Source: an uncultured Acidobacteriota bacterium
GTDB taxonomy: Bacteria > Acidobacteriota > Terriglobia > 20CM-2-55-15
Assembly (NCBI GenBank): GCA_963836435.1
Contig: CAWIJI010000015.1
Coordinates: 318-64,317 of the forward strand
Reading direction: 5' to 3'
Length of the DNA: 64,000 nucleotides
A program made the position numbers and the translations under genes. How positions within the stretch are numbered: the stretch's first letter is position 1; every line of letters starts with the position of its first letter. A model generated the notes under the pieces. The model was not told where the DNA came from, searched no databases, and worked only from the letters and a program-made list of their open reading frames with translations. Of the stretch, positions 11,376-54,093 are shown piece after piece.

Positions 11376-11785
11376 ACCCCTAAATCATTCATTTTAAAAG
11401 TCTCTATTTGCTTAATCGCCGCAGCTTAAGTGACGGCGTGGTCCAGCGGGCCGTTCGAAAAAGTGAGCTAGGATTTGGATCGATCCAGATGTAGCCGTAT
11501 TAGGATACCAGCCTGAGGGGGCGAGTCTCAAGGGAAAGACCCGCATTCCCGCATTGGTAACACTGATGGGGACTATTCTAGCTGAAAGCGGAATACGAGA
11601 AGGCTTTGGAGAAAGCCCAGCAGGAGGAGCTCGCCGCAGCAAGAAGAGCGGCCGAGATGGAAAAGGCAGCAGGGTTGGCCGAGGCGAACGGAGTGAGCCT
11701 CCGGAAACAGCCGCTTCAGGCCACGTTGGCCGGCCTTATTCCGGCGTGACCCGGAATGCTCACGAAGGAGGAATTGGTTCTAGAA

Positions 11786-12045
11786 GCACGCCGGAGGCGT
11801 GCTCTGGAGTTTGGACATTTTGCACGCCGGAGGCGTGAAAGGAAGGTAGCCCCGGGTGGAGCGCAGCGACACCCGGGGTTCATCTCACGAGCGGCGTTTG
11901 CACCCCGGCAGGGGCCCCGGCAGGGGTGCGAGGAATCCCTGCACCCCTGCCGGGGTGCAAGATTCCCGCTACGGTAACCCGGGTTGCGCTCGCTTCGCTC
12001 GCTTAACCCGGGGCTAAATTCTGAGCACGCCTCCGGCGTGCTCAG
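11786..12045 (+). repeat. Palindromic repeat family 1, full copy A (~260 bp, REPIN/MITE-like)
   Basis: Bounded by GCACGCCGGAGGCGTGC (11786-11802) and its reverse complement GCACGCCTCCGGCGTGC (12024-12040). Internal nested inverted repeats (TAGCCCCGGG...CCCGGGGCTA; GCACCCCGGCAGGGG...CCCCTGCCGGGGTGC). The core recurs at ~12138-12260, ~32616-32760 and 52565-52782. Confidence 0.85.
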
Positions 12046-12137
12046 ACTCACGTTTCAACGTCGCCATCGCCTTGCGGACGAATCTGAAAACCGGAGACGT
12101 AACCTCGTGTTTCCGCTCCCGCTCAGACTCAACAAGG

Positions 12138-12260
12138 AATTTAGCCCCGGGTTAAGCGAGCGCACTGGGGTTGCCGTAACGGAGATGTTCGCCCCTCGTG
12201 AGATGAACCCCGGGAGTCGCTCGGCTCCAACCGGGGCTACCTTCCTTTCACGCCTCCGGC
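12138..12260 (-). repeat. Family 1 repeat, inverted internally deleted copy B
   Basis: Reverse complement reads GCCGGAGGCGTGAAAGGAAGGTAGCCCCGG...GGGGTTCATCTCACGAGGGGCG/AACATCTCCGTTACGGCAACCCC...GCTTAACCCGGGGCTAAATT, i.e. both ends of copy A with the centre missing. Confidence 0.8.
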
Positions 12261-12269
12261 TTGCTTACG

Positions 12270-32493: not shown

Positions 32494-32615
32494 GGGAAAG
32501 AGTGGGGAAAGAGGGACAGCCTCGAGATTGTCCCTTCCCCCCCAGGTTCTAGAACAGGGGCGACGAGTTGTTTCTGCAATTCGCAAAGGCGGCATTGGAC
32601 AAGAGGGTCTCATAC

Positions 32616-32822
32616 CCGGCAGGGGTGCAGGGCTCCTCGCCCCCCTGCCGGGCCCTGCCGGGGTGCGAACGCCCCTCGTGAGATGAACCCCGGGTGTCGC
32701 TACGCTCCACCCGGGGCTACCTTCCTTTCACGCCTCTGGCGTGCAAAATGTCTAAACTCCAGGCGCCGAAGGCGCCGCCGCGCAAGCGCCCGAGCCGGGG
32801 TCCGGGGCAGAGCCCCGTCTAG
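32616..32822. repeat. Composite repeat C: inverted family 1 left part joined to the right half of family 2
   Basis: 32616-32760 is the reverse complement of copy A's left ~60%; 32761-32822 is AGGCGCCGAAGGCGCC...GCGCAAGCGCCCGAGCCGGGGTCCGGGGCAGAGCCCCGTCTAG. Confidence 0.8.
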
Positions 32823-36416: not shown

Positions 36417-36690
36417 TTAATGGCGTTTGAACGCAAGAAGTGCCTTCTCCGCCAATCCTCGCGCTCTCAACACAAGTTTCCCCGCAAAGGCGGAACCTGC
36501 CCTGAACTTGCGGTTTGCCTCGACGATCCTTTGATCAACAAACACTTCATCGGGAAACCTGAACGATGTTGTGTCACGCAACGCCACATCAAACCTGCCC
36601 GTCTTGCCGCAGTTGACACCAGTACCATCAAGTCCGGGGTTTTTCACCAAGGACCGGGTGGGATATACCGTGTACTGGTCGCCGGAGCTA
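36417..36690 (-). pseudogene. 3' remnant of a glycosyltransferase (GT-A/GT2-like)
   Basis: DQYTVYPTRSLVKNPGLDGTGVNCG resembles the recalled C-terminal YP-x2-SLV-x-N-x-G-x-DG-x-G-x-HC motif of sugar transferases; no 5' part. Confidence 0.55.
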
Positions 36691-36694
36691 CGCT

Positions 36695-36853
36695 CCGCGT
36701 GCTTGATGGATATGGACTTTGCGGTAAGTCGGCCGCTTGTCCCACGCTCGCCTTACCCGGTTCTTGTCCATCGACTCGCGTTTTTGCTTAGCACTTCAGA
36801 CCCCGCCTCGCGGCAGTAGCCCCTGCGTTTTCGCCAACCCTTCACCTCCATCA
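36695..36853 (-). mobile_element. Group II intron 5'-region (domain I) fragment, no RT ORF
   Basis: Minus strand TGATGGAGGTGAAG...GCGAGGCGGGGTCTGAAG...CGAGTCGATGGACAAGAACCGG...CGCAAAGTCCATATCCATCAAG follows the segment order I recall for bacterial group II intron 5' ends. The GUGYG terminus is absent. Confidence 0.6.
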
Positions 36854-46627: not shown

Positions 46628-46738
46628 TAGCTCGTTATGCCGTAACGAGAATTTTGTTCACGCAAGGCATAACGGGCCAGGCGCCCGAAGGCGCCGCGCA
46701 AGCGCCCGAGCCGGGGTCCGGGGCGGAGCCCCGTCTAG
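46628..46738 (+). repeat. Repeat family 2, empty copy E (~111 bp)
   Basis: TAGCTCGTTATGCCG...TAACGAGAATTTTGTTCACGCAAGGCATAACGGGCCAGGCGCCCGAAGGCGCCGCGCAAGCGCCCGAGCCGGGGTCCGGGGCGGAGCCCCGTCTAG; same sequence as the flanks of copy D. Confidence 0.85.
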
Positions 46739-46815
46739 TTGGCACTTGGGTGAGAGGCGCCGATCATATCTCCTCGAGCCGGGTGTCGGCAAATTGCGCG
46801 GACGCCAGATCCAGG

Positions 46816-47931
46816 CTAATTCGAACTTCCAGGTTCTTCCAACTCCGGCGGGTCGCCTCTCCGGCCGGACAGGAATCCGATCCAGGGGTAGCGGTCGCGC
46901 TGGCTTGCCATGAAGGCGCAGCCTAACACAACGAACGTTTCAATGTAGGCCAGGACGAGAAACGTCACGGAAATGGCGAAGGGGCCCTGGGTCGGGTCCA
47001 GGCCCGGGGCCAGTTTGAAGTAAACGATACGCACGATCTCTACCAGGACTCCAGCCAGCATCGCGGCCGGAAGCACGGTTCGTCCCTCGATTTTGCGGTT
47101 GGGGAGGTACCGATACAGGGCGTAGATAGCCACCGTGAAAAAGGACATTGTAGTCAGGTGATTCACGGCCAAATTGAGAACCTCTCGAAGGATGATGAAA
47201 CGCAACGGACCCACAATCCAATGCAGGACTGCCGACAGAATCACGAACAGCACGCCGACTGCCGGAAGTGACACCGAAACCCGGAGTTCCGCAACGTGGG
47301 TGGTCCAATCGCGGGGAAGCAACCGGTAAAGCCCGAAAGCTGCAGTAACGAATAGGACTGCGGCCAGGGTCTCGATGACGGCGAAGCTCAACACTCGTCG
47401 CACCAGGTCGGATTGAAGGAGACCAATCACATAGTGGAGCGACGTGGATACCAGGACGAAGAAAAGCCCCACGCCCGTGCAAACCACGGTCAGACTGAAG
47501 CCGATAATCTGATTCTTCCAGTAGGGCCTGTCTTCGTGTACGTGCCAGAGGCGGTTCAACCCGGCTTCGAGCGGAACAAAGACCGCCGCGGCTCCGAGCA
47601 GCACCCAGAAAATGGATCCGAGTTCCACCCGCCCCTGAAAGGCCGCGAACCGCGCTTCGAGATTCCGGATGATGAAGCCACGATCGCCCGGTAGAAAGTA
47701 TCCCTGGACCAGCTCCAGCATAACGTCGTAGGCGAGGTCCCAGTGCAGCACGTTCTTGAGCATTCCCAACATGACCAGGCAGGAAGGGAAAAACCCGATC
47801 AGCGCGGCGCATGCCAGCGCCAGACAGAACGCGTGGGTCTCTGTCTGCAGGATCAGGTAGCGAAAAAGAGGAAACAGGTTCTTCAACTCGCTCCAGAAGC
47901 GGAGCCAGACATCGCGTTGCAGCTTCACCAC
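46816..47931 (-). CDS. YihY/virulence factor BrkB family membrane protein with an internal duplication
   Basis: ALACAALIGFFP, ASVFVPLE-like AAAVFVPLEAGLNRLW, LYRYLPNRK, GPFAISVTFL. Start placed at GTG 47931. Confidence 0.8.
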   Translation of the reverse strand: MVKLQRDVWLRFWSELKNLFPLFRYLILQTETHAFCLALACAALIGFFPSCLVMLGMLKNVLHWDLAYDVMLELVQGYFLPGDRGFIIRNLEARFAAFQGRVELGSIFWVLLGAAAVFVPLEAGLNRLWHVHEDRPYWKNQIIGFSLTVVCTGVGLFFVLVSTSLHYVIGLLQSDLVRRVLSFAVIETLAAVLFVTAAFGLYRLLPRDWTTHVAELRVSVSLPAVGVLFVILSAVLHWIVGPLRFIILREVLNLAVNHLTTMSFFTVAIYALYRYLPNRKIEGRTVLPAAMLAGVLVEIVRIVYFKLAPGLDPTQGPFAISVTFLVLAYIETFVVLGCAFMASQRDRYPWIGFLSGRRGDPPELEEPGSSN

Positions 47932-48119
47932 CAGATCATAGCGGTGGGGCCGACTGTACGCATCAATCCTTTCATGGGCGCACGTCTGGCACACTTCGGA
48001 AAGCAAACCGTGACAGTTCCATGGAGGCACGATGGAATACGCTCGCCTGATTCCGGGTTCGAGGTGCGCAACCCCGAATTCGCGATAGAATCTCTGCATT
48101 CTTTTTCCGAGGTCGAACG

Positions 48120-48627
48120 ATGCCTGAACTCAAGATTCGCGTGAATGAGCAGGAGCGCAATGTGACTGCCGCGCCCGACACGCCGCTGCTGTATGTGCTG
48201 ATGGACGAGTTGGAACTCAAAGGGCCGCGGTTCGGCTGCGGACTCGGCCAGTGCGGGTCGTGCTCGGTGTTGGTGAATGGCGTGGAAACGCGATCCTGCA
48301 TGACAAAGGTTGCCGACGTGACAGGAAAGTCCGTCACGACGCTGGAAGGGCTGCCCGCCTGGTATGCCGCGCAGAAAAAGCTTCGAAGGCGCCCGGCACT
48401 GCATCCCGTCCAGCAGGCCATGATCGACGAGCAGGCGCTGCAATGCGGCTACTGCTTCAACGGCATGATCATCAAAGCTTCGGAGCTGCTCTCGAAGACG
48501 CCCCAACCGACCGACGCGCAGATTCGCACGGCAATGAACGGACATCTATGCCGCTGCGGCACTTATCCGAGAATCCTGAAAGCCATTCCAGCGCGCTTCG
48601 CTAGCGATGAAGGGGGTGCCGAAATGA
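48120..48627 (+). CDS. (2Fe-2S)-binding small subunit (IorA/CoxS-like); 1-nt frameshift near the end
   Basis: GPRFGCGLGQCGSC, QCGYC, HLCRCGTY. A shifted frame ends at TGA 48625-48627, overlapping the next ATG. Confidence 0.88.
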
Positions 48628-50838
48628 GCACCCGACGAGAATTCCTCAAGACAGGCGGCGCACTGGTTGTCGGCTTCAGTCTCGGCGAAGGCGACGGGCT
48701 AGGCGCTCAGGGTCGGGGAGCGCGAGGAGCGGCGCCGGTCCCCGACCTGCGGCAGGTCGACACCTGGCTCGCGATCCACGCCGATAACACCGCGACCGTT
48801 TACATCGGATTCGCCGAGCTCGGCCAGGGCGCATCCACAGCGCTGCTGCAGATCGCGGCCGAAGAACTCGACCTGGACATGCCCCAGATCAATACGGTGC
48901 AGCTCGATACCAGACGTCACGCCCAATCAGGGCGGCACTTATTCCAGCGCGTCGATCAGCCGGGGGACCGCAGGTCCGCACCGCCGCGGCCGAAGCCCGG
49001 CTCGCGCTTCTGCAAGATCGCGTCGGCCAGACTCGCTGCGCCGCTGGAAGCCGCTGGCGGTTTCCAAGGGCGTGGTTACCGTCGCGGCAACCCGGCACGT
49101 TCGGTCACCTACGGCGAACTGATCGGCGACAAGCCTTCAACCTTGCCTTCACGGGGTCGGCTCCGGTAAAACCCGCGAGCGATTACAGGATCGTCGGCAA
49201 GCCCGCCGCGCGCAAGGACATGGCCGACAAAGTCGCGCGGCAACTATGCCTACATGCAGTACGTGCGCGTGCCGGGCATGCTGCACGGACGCATCGTTCG
49301 GCCGCGTGGCCAGGGCGCGTACGGTACGTCGCCAAGGTCCTGAGCGTCGACGAAGTCGTCGATCCGCGCGATTCCCGGCGCTGCGCGTGGTCCGCAAGGG
49401 GATTTCGTGGGCGTGGTCGCGGAAAAGGAATGGGATGCCGTGCGAGCCGCCCAACAATTGAAAGTCACGTGGGACACCAAGCCTTCATTGCCGGGAAGCG
49501 AGGCGCTTTACGAGCACATGCGCGCAGCCAAAACGCAGGAAGCAGCGTCCGTGAAAGCGGCAACGTGGCAGGCAGCGTTCAGCGGCGCCGCCCACGTCGC
49601 TTCCCAAAATGCCAGGGCCCCTATCAGGCTCACGCTCCGTTCGGGCCGAACTGCGCGATCGCCGACGTGAAGGCGGACTCGGCGCTGGTCATGTGCTCGA
49701 CGCAGGACATCTACAACCTGCGCACCGGCCTCGCCCGAATGCTCGAACCTGCGCAGCAGAAAAGATACGGGTCCGGTACTACGAAGGTTCAGGCACCTAC
49801 GGCCATAGTTGTCACGACGATGTGGCTCAGGCCGCTGTGATCCTGTCGCAGGAGTCGGCAAACCCGTTCGGTTGCAGTTCATGCGATGGGACGAGCACGG
49901 CTGGGACAACTACGGACCGGCGCATGTGGGCGAAGTTCGCGCGGCCGCCGATGCCGAAGGGAAAGATCGTCGCATACGAATATCACGGCTGGCAGCACAG
50001 CTGGAGCAATACCGAAACGTCCGATCAACTGGCGTTCGGGACGCCGGCGGCCGAGCGGCCCGGAATCGGAGCCCAGGGCATCAATCCCCTCACGCTCGGC
50101 TCGATGTACGACATTCCGAATCTCGCCTGATAAACCACAAGCTTCCGGGGCTCGAGTATCTGAAAGGTGCATGGTTGCGCTCGCCGCTGGATCTCTCGTT
50201 GTCGTTTGCATCGGAGCAGGCGATCGACCAGCTCGCCTATCTTCTCGAGATCGATCCCTGGGAATTCCGTCAGCGCAATATCAAGGATGCGCGCTGGCTG
50301 GGCGTTCTCAATGCTGCGGCACAGGCGGCAAAATGGACACCCCGCCGCGCGGCCTCCGGACTTTCAAACGCGAAAGTCGTGACCGGACGCGGTATCGGCG
50401 TCGGCACGCATCTCGCGTCGTACGGCGGCGCTGTCGCGGAAATCGAAGTCAACAAGGAGACCGGCCGGGTGGTCGCGAAACATCTTTATGGCGCGATCGA
50501 TGCCGGACTGGTCGTCAATCCCGGCATCGTCGAAGCGCAGATCACCGGACAACTGGTTCAGACCGCCAGCCGCATGTTCAAAGAGGAAGTGACCTTCAAT
50601 ACAACTAACGTCACAAGCCTGGACTGGGGCAGTTATCCGATCCTGCGCTTCGAAGAAACCCCCGAAGTTACACCGGTCGTCGTGCAACGTTTAGATGAAC
50701 GTTCCTCGGGGGCGGGCGAAGAAGTTATGGCCGCCTGCCGCGGCGGCGATCGCCAACGCGTTCTTCGATGCAACCGGAGTCCGGATGGAACGGTATCCCT
50801 TCACGCCCAGTCGCGTGCTGACCGCGATGAAGAAGTGA
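48624..50838 (+). CDS. Tat-exported molybdopterin-binding aldehyde/xanthine oxidoreductase large subunit (IorB-like), many frameshifts
   Basis: MSTRREFLKTGG Tat leader, ELGQGASTAL, YVRVPGMLHGR, HAPFGPNCAIADV, YYEGSGTYG, VRLQFMRWDEHGWD, WLRSP, SFASEQAIDQLA, GAIDAGLVVNP, YPILRF. Confidence 0.85.
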
Positions 50839-50854
50839 GCAAGGAGGACAAGCG

Positions 50855-51256
50855 TTGAACAGCGAAACATGGAGAGCCTCAACCGTTCTTGGTGTGCGGC
50901 ACGTCCGGCGGACGGCGGAGTACTGGCGGGATATACTCGGCTTCAGCCTGGACCCGGTTGACGGCGTGTTCCAGCCATCGCCGGACGAACCAGACGGCGT
51001 GTATGCCATCGTCAAGCGTTCCGGAGTCTGGGTCCACTTCCAGATTCGCCGTGATGACCTTGCGTTACGGCAACGGCCAGCGTTCGAAAGAGACGTGTAC
51101 TTCTACGTGGACGACGTCGCCGGCCTGCACCAGGAGCTTGAACGCCGCGGCGCGAAGATCCTGGCCGAACCACATATGGCTCCGCATGGAATCCGCGAGA
51201 TGGTCGTCGAAGATCTGAACGGCTTCAGGCTTGCGTTTGGCGAGCTGTCGCACTAG
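50855..51256 (+). CDS. VOC/glyoxalase/bleomycin-resistance family protein
   Basis: YWRDILGF, VYFYVDDV, PHGIREMVVEDLNGFRLAFGE. Confidence 0.85.
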   Translation: MNSETWRASTVLGVRHVRRTAEYWRDILGFSLDPVDGVFQPSPDEPDGVYAIVKRSGVWVHFQIRRDDLALRQRPAFERDVYFYVDDVAGLHQELERRGAKILAEPHMAPHGIREMVVEDLNGFRLAFGELSH

Positions 51257-51274
51257 CGGACCTGGCGAGACACG

Positions 51275-52339
51275 ATGAGTCTTCTTTTAAAATCGACGCT
51301 GATGATCGCGGCAATCCTGGCCGTTTGCTGGGTTGCAGCCGCTTCACAACAGGCGGCGCGGCCAGCCCGCCGGTCTCCGCAGACGCTGACCGTGGGCAAC
51401 ACTCTGGTACGCCGGCTCGATTACGCCCGTTTCAAGTCCAATATCCAGAAATTGGCCAGCTTCGGCACGCGGTTCTACAACACAAAGGGAAACGCTGATG
51501 CACGAAATTGGCTGCAGGCTGAATTGGAATTGTTCGGGTACAACGTGGAACGGCACAAGTTCGAAATCTCAGGCACAGAAGTGGACAGCCTCTACGTAAC
51601 CAAGATCGGCACCCGCTCGCCGAACAAGATGTACATTGTGTCGGCCCACATGGACAGCAACAATTACGATTCGCCCGATCGCTCATTCGCGCCGGGCGCC
51701 AACGACGATGCTTCGGGCAGCTCGATCGTCCTTGAAGCCGCCAGGGTCTTTGCCGGCCAGGACGTGAAGACGGAGGTCTCCGTCCGCTTCATTCTCTGGA
51801 ACGCAGAAGAACAGGGCATGGTTGGTTCTGGCGCCTATGTTCGCGACCGGCGCGGATCACAGGGAATTGAAGCGCCGCGCGGTTCCGGACATTATCCAGA
51901 GCCCACGTGGCTGGGTATGATCCAGCACGACATGATGATGTTCGATCACGGCCTGCCGCCTGGCGATCGGCAGATTCCCGGGGCAGATGTGGATATTGAG
52001 TACGCCGCTGGTGCGGATTTTGGAGGAAAGGCGCTGGACCTCGCCCGCATCTTTCTCAAGGCAAACCCTCAGTACTCCACAGACTACCCGGCGCAGATTG
52101 GCGATGCCATGCAGCAGACCGACTCCGCCCCGTTCGCGCCGTATACTGCCGCGATCAGTCTTCGCGAAAACCGCCGTGGATCCGAAATCGGCAATGGCTC
52201 CAACCCGAACCACCACCGGAGCAGCGATACTTACGAGAACTACCGGGACGAAGATTTTCGACTGGGGTTCAACGCGCTACAGATGACGGTGGGTGCCATA
52301 TCCGAACTTACCGCGGCCGGCGGCCCACCGATTCGCTAA
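51275..52339 (+). CDS. Exported M28-family metallopeptidase
   Basis: VSAHMDS, PGANDDASG, WNAEEQG, QHDMMM, TDSAPF, PNHH...D. Confidence 0.85.
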   Translation: MSLLLKSTLMIAAILAVCWVAAASQQAARPARRSPQTLTVGNTLVRRLDYARFKSNIQKLASFGTRFYNTKGNADARNWLQAELELFGYNVERHKFEISGTEVDSLYVTKIGTRSPNKMYIVSAHMDSNNYDSPDRSFAPGANDDASGSSIVLEAARVFAGQDVKTEVSVRFILWNAEEQGMVGSGAYVRDRRGSQGIEAPRGSGHYPEPTWLGMIQHDMMMFDHGLPPGDRQIPGADVDIEYAAGADFGGKALDLARIFLKANPQYSTDYPAQIGDAMQQTDSAPFAPYTAAISLRENRRGSEIGNGSNPNHHRSSDTYENYRDEDFRLGFNALQMTVGAISELTAAGGPPIR

Positions 52340-52492
52340 TGCTAATCCGGAGAGGGTCAGGCAATGTGGGCGATTGAGGGATCCCTTCATCGTCGGCACC
52401 GATGGCGTGCAGCGCTGCTTCACCGCGATGACCAAGTGCGCTCTCGCCTCGAAACTGTGGGGGCGAAATAACTTCGGCAGGGCGAGGCGGAT

Positions 52493-52838
52493 CTAGCTCG
52501 TTATGCCGGGCATAACGAGAATTTTGTTCCCGCAAGCCATAACGGGCCAGGCGCCGAAGGCGCCCTGGAGTTTAGTTAGACATTCTAGCCCCGGGTGGAG
52601 CGCAGCGACACCCGGGGTTCATCTCACGAGGGGCGTTCGCACCCCGGCAGGCCCCGGCAGGGGTGCGAGGAATCCCTGCACCCCTGCCGGGGTGCGAACA
52701 TCTCCGTTACGGCAACCCCGGGTTGCGCTCGCTTCGCTCGCTTAACCCGGGGCTAAATTCTCAGCACGCCTCCGGCGTGCTAGCGCCGAAGGCGCCGCGC
52801 AAGCGCCCGACCCGGGGTCCGGGGCAGAGCCCCGTCTA
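52493..52838 (+). repeat. Composite repeat D: family 1 element (52565-52782) nested inside family 2
   Basis: Family 2 left half, GCGCCGAAGGCGCC (52551-52564), 218-bp family 1 insert, GCGCCGAAGGCGCC (52783-52796), family 2 right half. Confidence 0.9.
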
Positions 52839-54093
52839 CCTGGACTCCGCGGCCCCAACCGGCCGGTAGTCGATCTGATCCGCCTGCTCGAAAATCCTGC
52901 CGGCCGGATTGAAGATCTGATTCAGCAACAAGCCCACGAAGAGGAGTGCGGAGAACCCCGTGGCAAGAGCGAAGCCATAAATCGGACCGCCCATGGCGTC
53001 GCTGACTGCGCCCATCGCCAGCGGAGCCAGCACAGCCGAAATGCAGGTATAGAAGAGAATCACTCCTGCGGCGGCACCGTGCTCCGACTTCGGCACGCAA
53101 CTGATGCCCTTGGAATTGATCGTCGGATAGATCACGGACATGAACAGTCCGGACAAGGGTAAGGAATAGACGGCCCAGCGCACGCCACCGGCAATGCTGA
53201 TTGCGAAACATGCCAGGATCAGTCCGCTGCAGATGGTCAGAACCGAGGTCCACGAAAGCTCGGTTCAGCATCCAGGCGCCCAGGAATCGTCCGCCGGCGC
53301 GGAGCAGAAAGAAAATCGAGATGCTGTAGACGGCGATCCATTTCCCGGCACCGCTGTAGTCCGCCAGGAGCGTCGGCATCCACACATAGATCGCGGCTTC
53401 AACCGCGACATAAAGAAATGCTCCCAGCGAGAACAACAGAACGAAGCGGTTCTTCATCACCGCCATGATGGACTCAGATCCGTGTGTTCCGCCGCTGCCG
53501 AAGCCCGCTTGGGGTACTGAGCTCCAGATGCAGTCAGAATCAGCAGGACGCACATACTGCCCGCGATCACGTACAGCCAGTGCCATGGAACGCTGCGATT
53601 CAACAACTGAGCCAGAACGGCCGGGCCCAAGATCGAACCAATGCCGAAAAAGCCTTCGACCCAGTTCATGATCGAGGTGTGTTCCGCGGTCGATCTCGAG
53701 ATGTCGCCGATAAGCGCGAGCGCACCGGTCTTGAAGATACCGATGGCGATGCCGGAAAGAGCCATCAGCACGCAGAAAAACAGAAACGAGCTTCCCGCGA
53801 GGAAGAGGTACGAGGAGGCGGCGAAAAGCGTCAGGCCGGTGACGAATGGTCGTTTTCCTTCCGTACCGGTCCGCCAGGTGACCAAGGAAAAAGCCGGCCA
53901 TCGCGATGCCCGCCATCGTGGCGTATTGAAACGTTCCCGCTGCGGTCAGGCTCAATCGGAACGTCTTCACGATTTCCGGAATGATGATGCCGACCGAGTC
54001 GGTAGTCATGGCAAACATCGCGAACATCAGATAGGTCAGGATCTTGAGGGCCGTCATGTTCAAACGGCTGCCCGAGCCGGCCGGCTGCATCAT
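52836..54093 (-). CDS. MFS sugar transporter (FucP/GluP-like), frameshifted
   Basis: FAMTTDSVGIIIP, LADRYGRK, GIFKTGALALIG, EGFFGIG, YVAVEAAIYVW, FMSVIYPTINSKGI across three frames. Confidence 0.8.

Follow-up and report, generated by a model that had tools for sequence, protein, structure and literature searches.

The window analysed here is a stretch of 64,000 nucleotides (C15:318-64317, where C denotes a contig) of G000, a metagenome-assembled genome (MAG) of an uncultured Acidobacteriota soil bacterium with 4.94 Mb in 18 contigs, 59% GC and a completeness of 69%. Two families of short repeats meet in this window. Family 1 (F1) is bounded by a 16-bp terminal inverted repeat (TIR), T (CTGGAGTTTAGACATT), the inverse of which at the far end is termed T'. 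Family 2 is built from the modules L, M and R together with a hairpin, H, and a unit carrying an insert at this hairpin is called filled. Copy D is probably a family-2 unit into which F1, as a transposable element of the miniature inverted-repeat type (MITE), has transposed, the insertion of its T ends being guided by the hairpin. Copy D and its empty counterpart, copy E, comprise the following features.

46628 to 46738, plus strand: copy E, continuous over 111 nt, a family-2 unit that is empty and has the short form (L-H-R, no module M).
46680 to 46695, no strand: the single hairpin H of copy E, GGCGCC-CGAA-GGCGCC (GGCGCCCGAAGGCGCC), read from the sequence.
52493 to 52549, plus strand: module L of copy D, located by module matches and holding the CTCGTTATGCC/GGCATAACGAG hairpin.
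52550 to 52564, no strand: left hairpin H of copy D, GGCGCCGAAGGCGCC, flush with the F1 terminus CTGGAG, read from the sequence.
52565 to 52782, plus strand: F1 insert of copy D, 218 nt, of the 'T..S' form, located by module matches.
52783 to 52796, no strand: right hairpin H of copy D, GCGCCGAAGGCGCC, the target duplication, identical to the left copy at 14/14 positions.
52797 to 52838, plus strand: module R of copy D, located by module matches.

Copy E, one of the 30 unfilled units, is contiguous, with L (52 nt) followed by GGCGCCCGAAGGCGCC and then by R, and its single hairpin represents the target state before insertion. The 146-nt consensus of the family folds into the same hairpin, with a 6-bp stem. 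Copy D spans 52493-52838 and corresponds to a unit of the copy-E type with 218 nt inserted directly 3' of the hairpin and with H doubled. The preliminary description of this DNA had reported an uninterrupted copy E and a copy D split at its hairpin by 218 bp with a 14-mer on both sides, and had taken D for an insertion of one element into another; both structures are reproduced, and the insertion is supported. The insert runs from the T terminus, with a 4-nt internal duplication, through the P hairpin, the central C palindrome and the Q hairpin to the S hairpin, and is 94% identical to positions 11847-12042 of the window. A minus-strand open reading frame (ORF) at 52780-54093 extends approximately 19 codons into R and H of copy D. 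At the start of another contig, C6:1-55 holds a poly-T run and GTTCAGTTACGTATTGCT, resembling a nanopore adapter remnant; homopolymer errors may touch single-base details, such as the extra C in the hairpin of copy E.

A census of family 2, made by BLAST of the single modules against G000, yields approximately 62 L and 62 R modules, which pair into 57 units. Thirty of these are empty and 27 are filled, which is well outside what chance would give; the reading of the preliminary description, which had hinged on further pairs of this kind, thus gains them. The canonical empty unit has 146 nt in the order L-H-M-R and exists in approximately 20 copies, M being a module of 33 nt (GCCGCGAGGGCAGCGGCGCGCGGCTGTCGCGCC); E and D represent a shorter and less common form, in which M is absent. 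The inserts of the filled units are 140-1150 nt in length and consist of F1 modules in either orientation; 22 of these 27 units have H to the left as well as to the right of the insert. Two units (C11:124720-125307 and C11:140445-141176) show the order H-F1-H-F1-H, as expected from two successive insertions, each doubling H. One further insert (C11:561850) is placed in the hairpin of M, the loop of which is lost.

The ends of family 2 read (T/C)TAG...CTAG. Of the (C)TAG...CTA(G) ends described earlier, the right one holds as CTAG, but the left one is more often TTAG than CTAG. The two ends form no inverted repeat and the left and right tetramers are often unequal within one copy, so that the suggested targeting of CTAG by family 2 is unproven; neither the TIRs nor the matching short duplication in each copy that a CTAG- or TA-targeting MITE needs were found in this family. 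Tandem units share one CTAG, and head-to-tail arrays whose units overlap in this way occur as a triplet (C2:338304-338734) and a doublet (C10:461825-462115). The unit as a whole folds as a string of small hairpins, modestly better than shuffled sequences (z = -1.97).

The full F1 element follows the modular order T-tt-S'-aaaggaagg-P-C-Q-S-N-g-T'. The S hairpin is AGCACGCC-TCC-GGCGTGCT, P and Q are hairpins of the type CCCCGGG...CCCGGGG, C is the central palindrome, and N is a spacer of 91 nt. The S'-P and Q-S arms form inverted repeats around C, and F1 matches its own reverse strand at 70-74%. The distance between T(+) and T(-) peaks sharply at 332-336 bp, with a mode of 333-336 bp; shorter 'T..S' forms of approximately 220-230 bp, among them the insert of copy D, are also common. 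G000 contains approximately 270 hits to T and approximately 190 full hits to the 218-nt insert. The element consists of hairpin modules only and has no coding capacity; its small size, the absence of genes and the many copies are as expected of a MITE, and its earlier classification as non-autonomous is borne out for the present assembly. A Rfam search of both repeats returned no family at its gathering score. The Acido-Lenti-1 RNA motif (RF01687; Weinberg et al. 2010, PMC2864571) comes from the same phylum and matches the Q-S part weakly at window 52746-52779, but with 11.3 bits against a gathering score of 37 and E = 6.6, F1 is not a member by the Rfam threshold. The Q-S linker CTAAATTCTCAG (window 52750-52782), present in all F1 copies, resembles the T' terminus CTAAACTCCAG; speculatively, it could act as an internal end that enables S-ended forms to move.

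The T ends are strongly associated with hairpins. A perfect hairpin with a stem of at least 5, located no more than 3 nt from the end, adjoins 241 of the 322 T ends in G000 (75%), compared with 103 of 5000 random positions (2.1%). There are 86 distinct hairpins among these neighbours, the commonest being the S hairpin of F1 itself and H. Furthermore, the flanks are frequently duplicated. Among the simple T..T' copies, flush direct repeats of 14-23 nt occur in 25 of 57 (44%), compared with 3 of 57 when left and right flanks are re-paired by a shift, and direct duplications are also present in 15 of 65 T..S forms. At F1 loci without family-2 modules, exact direct flank repeats of at least 13 nt are found in 18 of 146, compared with 4 of approximately 725 shuffled flank pairs. 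The duplicated repeats are entire hairpins, flush with the termini of the element, and have unrelated sequences such as GGACGACTCCTGTCGTCG, GTGGCCTCAAAGAGGCCAT, TAGTCCAGGACTAGTCCTGGAA and GCTCCTCCTCAAGAGGAGGAGAC. Since the whole hairpin is doubled, the duplication length follows the hairpin length, being 14-23 bp in G000, 25 bp in an insertion sequence (IS) from a metagenome and approximately 40 bp in one case. Copies in which one flank is the hairpin with an inverted loop amount to 4 of 57 simple copies, compared with 5 of 57 when the pairing is shifted; in G000, it is thus the direct class alone that stands above chance. The target-site duplication expected of a MITE is therefore found in F1, both in the simple copies and in the 22 filled units with H on both sides.

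These data support the proposal that the hairpin repeat is an insertion footprint, and they alter what had been built on it. H is not a dedicated landing pad supplied by family 2 for F1, because 86 hairpins are used, including the S hairpin of F1 itself, and unrelated hairpins are duplicated. In addition, the two families are independent of each other: full family-2 units at 82-86% identity occur in the genus g5 (G047 and G048), where all are unfilled and neither T nor F1 is present, and T elements exist in genera without family 2. The supposed two-tier system becomes a single instance of an insertion habit that is guided by shape and takes in dozens of unrelated hairpins.

The same ends are found beyond G000. 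In the taxonomic family to which G000 belongs, four further genomes carry a variant of T with one mismatch, namely G009 (51 hits), G042 (28), G017 (22) and G002 (11). The T-bounded elements of G017 have quite different interiors and duplicated hairpin flanks, for example GCGCGGGCTAAAGCCCGCGA on both sides of L101, so the footprint follows the T ends and not the interior of F1. A scan of metagenomes for T matched at least 120 contigs, and the counts of metagenome T elements given here are among the matches listed. Perfect hairpins abut 92 of 156 T ends, and copies of MITE size show hairpin duplications of 13-21 nt (20 nt in L163 and 21 nt in L221, where the whole hairpin is duplicated). Approximately 20 contigs encode a DDE transposase of 458 aa preceded by an ORF of 111 aa, which resembles HARE-HTH. 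Thirteen full T-bounded ISs of 1.80-2.64 kb are present; the IS at L265 carries the exact TIR of G000 at both ends and the other 12 carry the one-mismatch variant, so F1 and a coding element share their ends, as is typical of a MITE and its partner. In the IS at L243, the whole hairpin is duplicated over 25 nt. Meanwhile, the metagenome elements L230, L175 and L169 are T-bounded and flanked by a hairpin and its reverse complement, with the loop inverted. A candidate for the enzyme with the same termini that the preliminary description had proposed to look for is thus present in the T-bounded ISs of the metagenomes, but it has no match in G000.

The transposase of the T-bounded ISs reaches 40 bits with Pfam DDE_5 (cut-off 27), and its best NCBIfam match is IS701_3 (NF049999), with 134 bits against a cut-off of 170. 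It therefore resembles IS701 transposases most closely, though distantly, and scores below their threshold, and the elements differ from IS701 in their length of 1.8-2.6 kb and their two ORFs. Members of the IS701 family measure 1.4-1.55 kb and duplicate exactly 4 bp of their target (De Palmenaer et al. 2008, PMC2266710), whereas the duplication of the T elements, where present, is a whole hairpin, with 18-25 bp in metagenome copies of MITE size and in the IS at L243, the latter having 25 bp.

The inner part of F1 has a different affinity. G000 holds four Y1 (HUH) transposase genes, one of which, C3:38179-38634, reaches 58 bits with the IS200/IS605 model NF033573 (cut-off 55) and 19 bits with the RayT model NF047646 (cut-off 80). 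Its orthologs, at 73-74% identity, are found only in G009 and G016 among 35 genomes, and within the order the F1 core, S'-P-C-Q-S, occurs outside G000 in just these two genomes. In all three genomes, core modules flank the Y1 gene at a distance of no more than 60-160 nt. Meanwhile, the cores of G016 have no T ends and no hairpin duplication at eight loci. The co-distribution, the flanking modules and the T-less cores of G016 indicate that the core is a unit similar to REPINs or PATEs with its own partner, and F1 in G000 is a composite in which this core is mostly boxed within T ends. PATEs are non-coding derivatives of IS200/IS605 (PMC3337134, PMC3119063). The F1 core shares with the REPIN-RAYT and PATE systems two inverted hairpin arms and a flanked, co-distributed, single-copy Y1 gene; unlike in REPIN-RAYT systems, this Y1 protein passes the IS200 model and not the RayT model, and the core in G000 usually stands between the TIRs of a DDE-type element. 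The three further Y1 paralogs, of 268-281 aa, are located at C2:274709-275041, C18:59634-59963 and C13:12739-13029. The one of them that was scanned reaches 59.6 bits with the RayT model (cut-off 80), and no F1 or family-2 module lies within 1.5 kb of the three.

Taken together, the T-ended elements integrate beside short, perfect hairpins, at their foot; these hairpins are GC-rich and may have any sequence, with stems of 5-9 bp or more and loops of 3-4 nt. The DDE transposase of the T-bounded ISs would supply the mobility of F1 in trans. The two strand transfers would hit the two feet of the palindrome, which are neighbours once a cruciform is extruded, at its four-way junction, and filling of the gaps would then copy the palindrome and double the hairpin. 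The entire hairpin comes to stand on both sides of the insert in a large minority of events, and the H hairpin of family 2 is simply one abundant target.

Several observations weigh against this interpretation. The duplication is not universal, as 25 of the 57 simple copies are without any, and the flanks with an inverted loop seen in some copies are unexplained by the proposed mechanism. The T..S forms, including the insert of copy D, have no second TIR and yet show flush duplications, for which a plain model with two TIRs does not account; the mechanism leaves these S-ended forms and the copies without duplication unexplained. Among the 10 metagenome copies of IS size with both flanks (among the matches listed), only L243 has a direct duplication of at least 12 nt, and two are of the inverted-loop type, so the footprint is present in a minority of the coding ISs and the case rests mainly on gene-less copies. 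The transposase itself was not found in G000, G009, G017 and G002; G042 contains only a fragment, and G008 a relative at 42-47%. These MAGs are incomplete or fragmented, so that the absence of the transposase from G000 is not proven, and likewise the activity of F1 in this organism. Since IS701 is described as making 4-bp duplications (PMC2266710), the T-bounded ISs would be a deviant branch of it. Seven reconstructed empty sites were searched for in G001, a genome of the same genus, and one of them (C16:121313) aligned across the junction; G001 lacks F1 at this orthologous intergenic site, and the hairpin is not conserved there. Therefore, the single-copy state before insertion rests on paralogous empty units. 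Finally, three junctions of filled units (C6:317008-317276, C14:163156-163463 and C8:356585-357166) are chimeric hairpins, GGCGCCGAAGGCGTGCT, in which the left half comes from H and the right half from S, and recombination or deletion between similar hairpins thus also occurs.

These chimeric hairpins speak for a modular mosaic of the bacterial interspersed mosaic element (BIME) type, in which recombination, slippage or template switching between similar hairpins would build the composites without any target-duplicating transposition. The many tandem arrays and the variable junctions agree with such a mosaic, as does the presence of the duplication in only 44% of the simple copies. However, the duplicated flanks are unique, unrelated hairpins lying flush with a conserved 16-bp TIR, and the shifted-pair controls are near zero beyond the recurrent H and S hairpins. 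The identical TIR also bounds transposase-coding ISs with the same footprint. In E. coli-type BIMEs, one or a few fixed REP/PU sequences alternate in orientation with fixed linkers, a pattern that the 86 different hairpins beside F1 do not follow. The preliminary description had named a mosaic of this type as the competing reading; the recombination that it implies is real, but with flanks of 86 sequences and TIRs shared with an IS, it is unlikely to be the origin of the composites.

The Y1 enzyme could also be regarded as the mover of the whole of F1, through a single-strand mechanism of the IS200 or RAYT-like type that yields hairpin copies, given that, in three genera, its gene accompanies the F1 core and has core modules at its flanks. 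IS200/IS605 elements have subterminal hairpins in direct orientation, which agrees with this role; their mechanism, however, does not produce a target duplication. G016, with Y1 and core but without T, has no hairpin duplication, and the T elements of G017 duplicate hairpins without a close Y1 ortholog, which makes this role quite improbable. The direct repetition of H on both sides of the insert could, in addition, result from site-specific recombination by crossover, in which a circular form of F1 with an H-like site would integrate at the H of family 2, integration by crossover having also been considered in the preliminary description. A conceivable recombinase is present, since four F1 copies (C14:6968-9444, C2:70224-72697, C10:171477-173950 and C10:95978-97421) carry, in the loop of their P' hairpin, an element with a large serine recombinase (LSR). 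This IS-like element of 2.23 kb encodes only an LSR of 585 aa and a ribbon-helix-helix (RHH) protein, and it has conserved TIRs of its own (..ACTCCYCG-WACGCAAAAGRTAAC). Elsewhere (loci L020-L099), it is multi-copy in MAGs of several phyla, usually interrupting the reverse transcriptase (RT) genes of group II introns at GTPQGG..SPLLAN; a literature search on LSRs in such genes returned nothing direct. The four copies are identical inside (2234 bp), whereas the left arms of their F1 hosts are only approximately 90% alike, which indicates independent insertions into F1, and an element with its own TIRs that occurs in many phyla without F1 is rejected as the driver. Moreover, the flanking repeats of F1 vary from copy to copy over 86 hairpins, whereas an att x att exchange needs one core site common to the element and all targets, so that integration by such a crossover is not supported. 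A crossover origin is accordingly very improbable, and transposition of F1 by its T ends into the hairpin of copy D is preferred.

Other potential partners of F1 in G000 can be set aside. An IS of the IS1182 family, 1.68 kb in size, has five near-identical copies (C3:72780-74458, C3:142138-143821, C4:208579-210260, C6:91253-92934 and C11:55133-56811), but its ends, GAGCCTGTAGGGG, and its duplication, CTAG, are both unrelated to T. One copy directly adjoins a filled family-2 unit at its CTAG end, and another is located inside a T' module. In G002 (L109, on its contig C8), an IS1182-family relative lies in a hairpin loop (GCACGGGGC-TGAA-GCCCCGCGC), where its duplication is apparently confined to the 4 nt of the loop; a literature search on IS1182 with hairpin duplication found nothing direct. 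An IS5-like element (C11:68.65-69.75 kb) and an IS4-like element (C16:121.4-124.0 kb) are nested in F1 and are rejected because they have TIRs of their own and ordinary duplications, the former with a 9-bp duplication and the latter with the TIR CAATGNCATTCGCTT and the 10-bp duplication CCCGGCAGGG. The IS4-like element (C16:121313-124189) is situated inside the C palindrome of F1 and the IS5-like element (C11:68386-70032, L001) inside the P hairpin, so that the hairpins of F1 are themselves insertion sinks. A casposase-like duplication of the palindrome is rejected, as G000 contains no Cas1, and so are rve-type transposases, of which G000 holds one decayed fragment only. The longer T...T' intervals of 4.7-5.8 kb are filled with ordinary genes and are likewise rejected.

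The remaining features of the two families in the window, together with one match of another kind, are as follows.

11765 to 12042 (approximate, within a few nt), plus strand: F1 copy outside family 2 and without H, in which an S' hairpin abuts T and is followed by T-tt-S'-P-C-Q-S.
12043 to 12266 (approximate), plus strand: N module (91 nt) and, after it, an F1 arm in inverted orientation with part of it deleted, Q'-P'-S, located by module matches.
32604 to 32762, minus strand: truncated F1, C'-P'-S-aa-T', with its T' end AATGTCTAAACTCCAG at 32747-32762 flush with H.
32763 to 32822, plus strand: H (32763-76), gcc and the family-2 module R, an unpaired R in the census.
36660 to 36817, minus strand: group II intron match, Rfam group-II-D1D4-3, 73 bits.

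The stretch at 32763-32822 is the right half of a filled unit, the left half of which, with L and H, is missing.

Several known elements show parts of this behaviour. In Yersinia, insertion of YPAL/RU-2 at dyad symmetries gives duplications of 3-26 bp (De Gregorio et al. 2006, cited from PMC2229807). As in F1, these are gene-less, mobile, intergenic repeats with duplications of variable length, targets spanning or adjoining dyad symmetries, and both empty and filled sites; the inverted repeats of YPAL are internal only, no transposase is reported for it, and it belongs to another phylum with another sequence. F1 differs from it in the 16-bp TIRs held in common with a coding IS and in the REPIN-like core carried as cargo. 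IS1630 of Mycoplasma fermentans, an IS30-family element, makes variable duplications of 19-26 bp (PMC2853133); compared by description only, it is likewise an IS with a long, variable target duplication, but belongs to the IS30 family and is not IS701-like. IS1272/TnSha1 of staphylococci, of the IS1182 family, targets hairpins (terminators) without primary-sequence specificity (PMC4923244, PMC5678879); the targeting is shared with F1, but part of the hairpin is deleted and nothing is duplicated. IS1549 and IS1634 make long, variable repeats for which there is no model (PMC2266710). With these precedents, the principle is already known, and what is new is the F1/T family itself, together with its partner of IS701-like type, its REPIN cargo and the very large number of its footprints.

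To our knowledge, structure-guided target choice by transposases is documented for few elements, and we know of no established mechanism for long, variable duplications. The T family offers hundreds of natural footprints with varied stem lengths, paralogous sites both with and without an insert, and a candidate transposase that is identifiable. It also reveals that hairpin-rich bacterial 'junk' is layered, with ISs and a serine-recombinase element inside the hairpins of F1 and F1 inside the hairpin of family 2. Because the duplication leaves each neighbouring gene its own copy of the hairpin, it may render such insertions nearly harmless. A wider interpretation, offered tentatively and with the balance leaning somewhat against it, is that the T-bounded ISs form a new IS701-like DDE branch, the transposase of which, with a HARE-HTH-like partner protein, reads DNA shape in place of sequence and integrates across the foot of an extruded hairpin or cruciform, with a duplication as long as the palindrome, while F1 would be a Y1-dependent REPIN unit that acquired DDE ends. 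If this is true, a single non-coding repeat could be subject to two transposition systems that are unrelated to each other.

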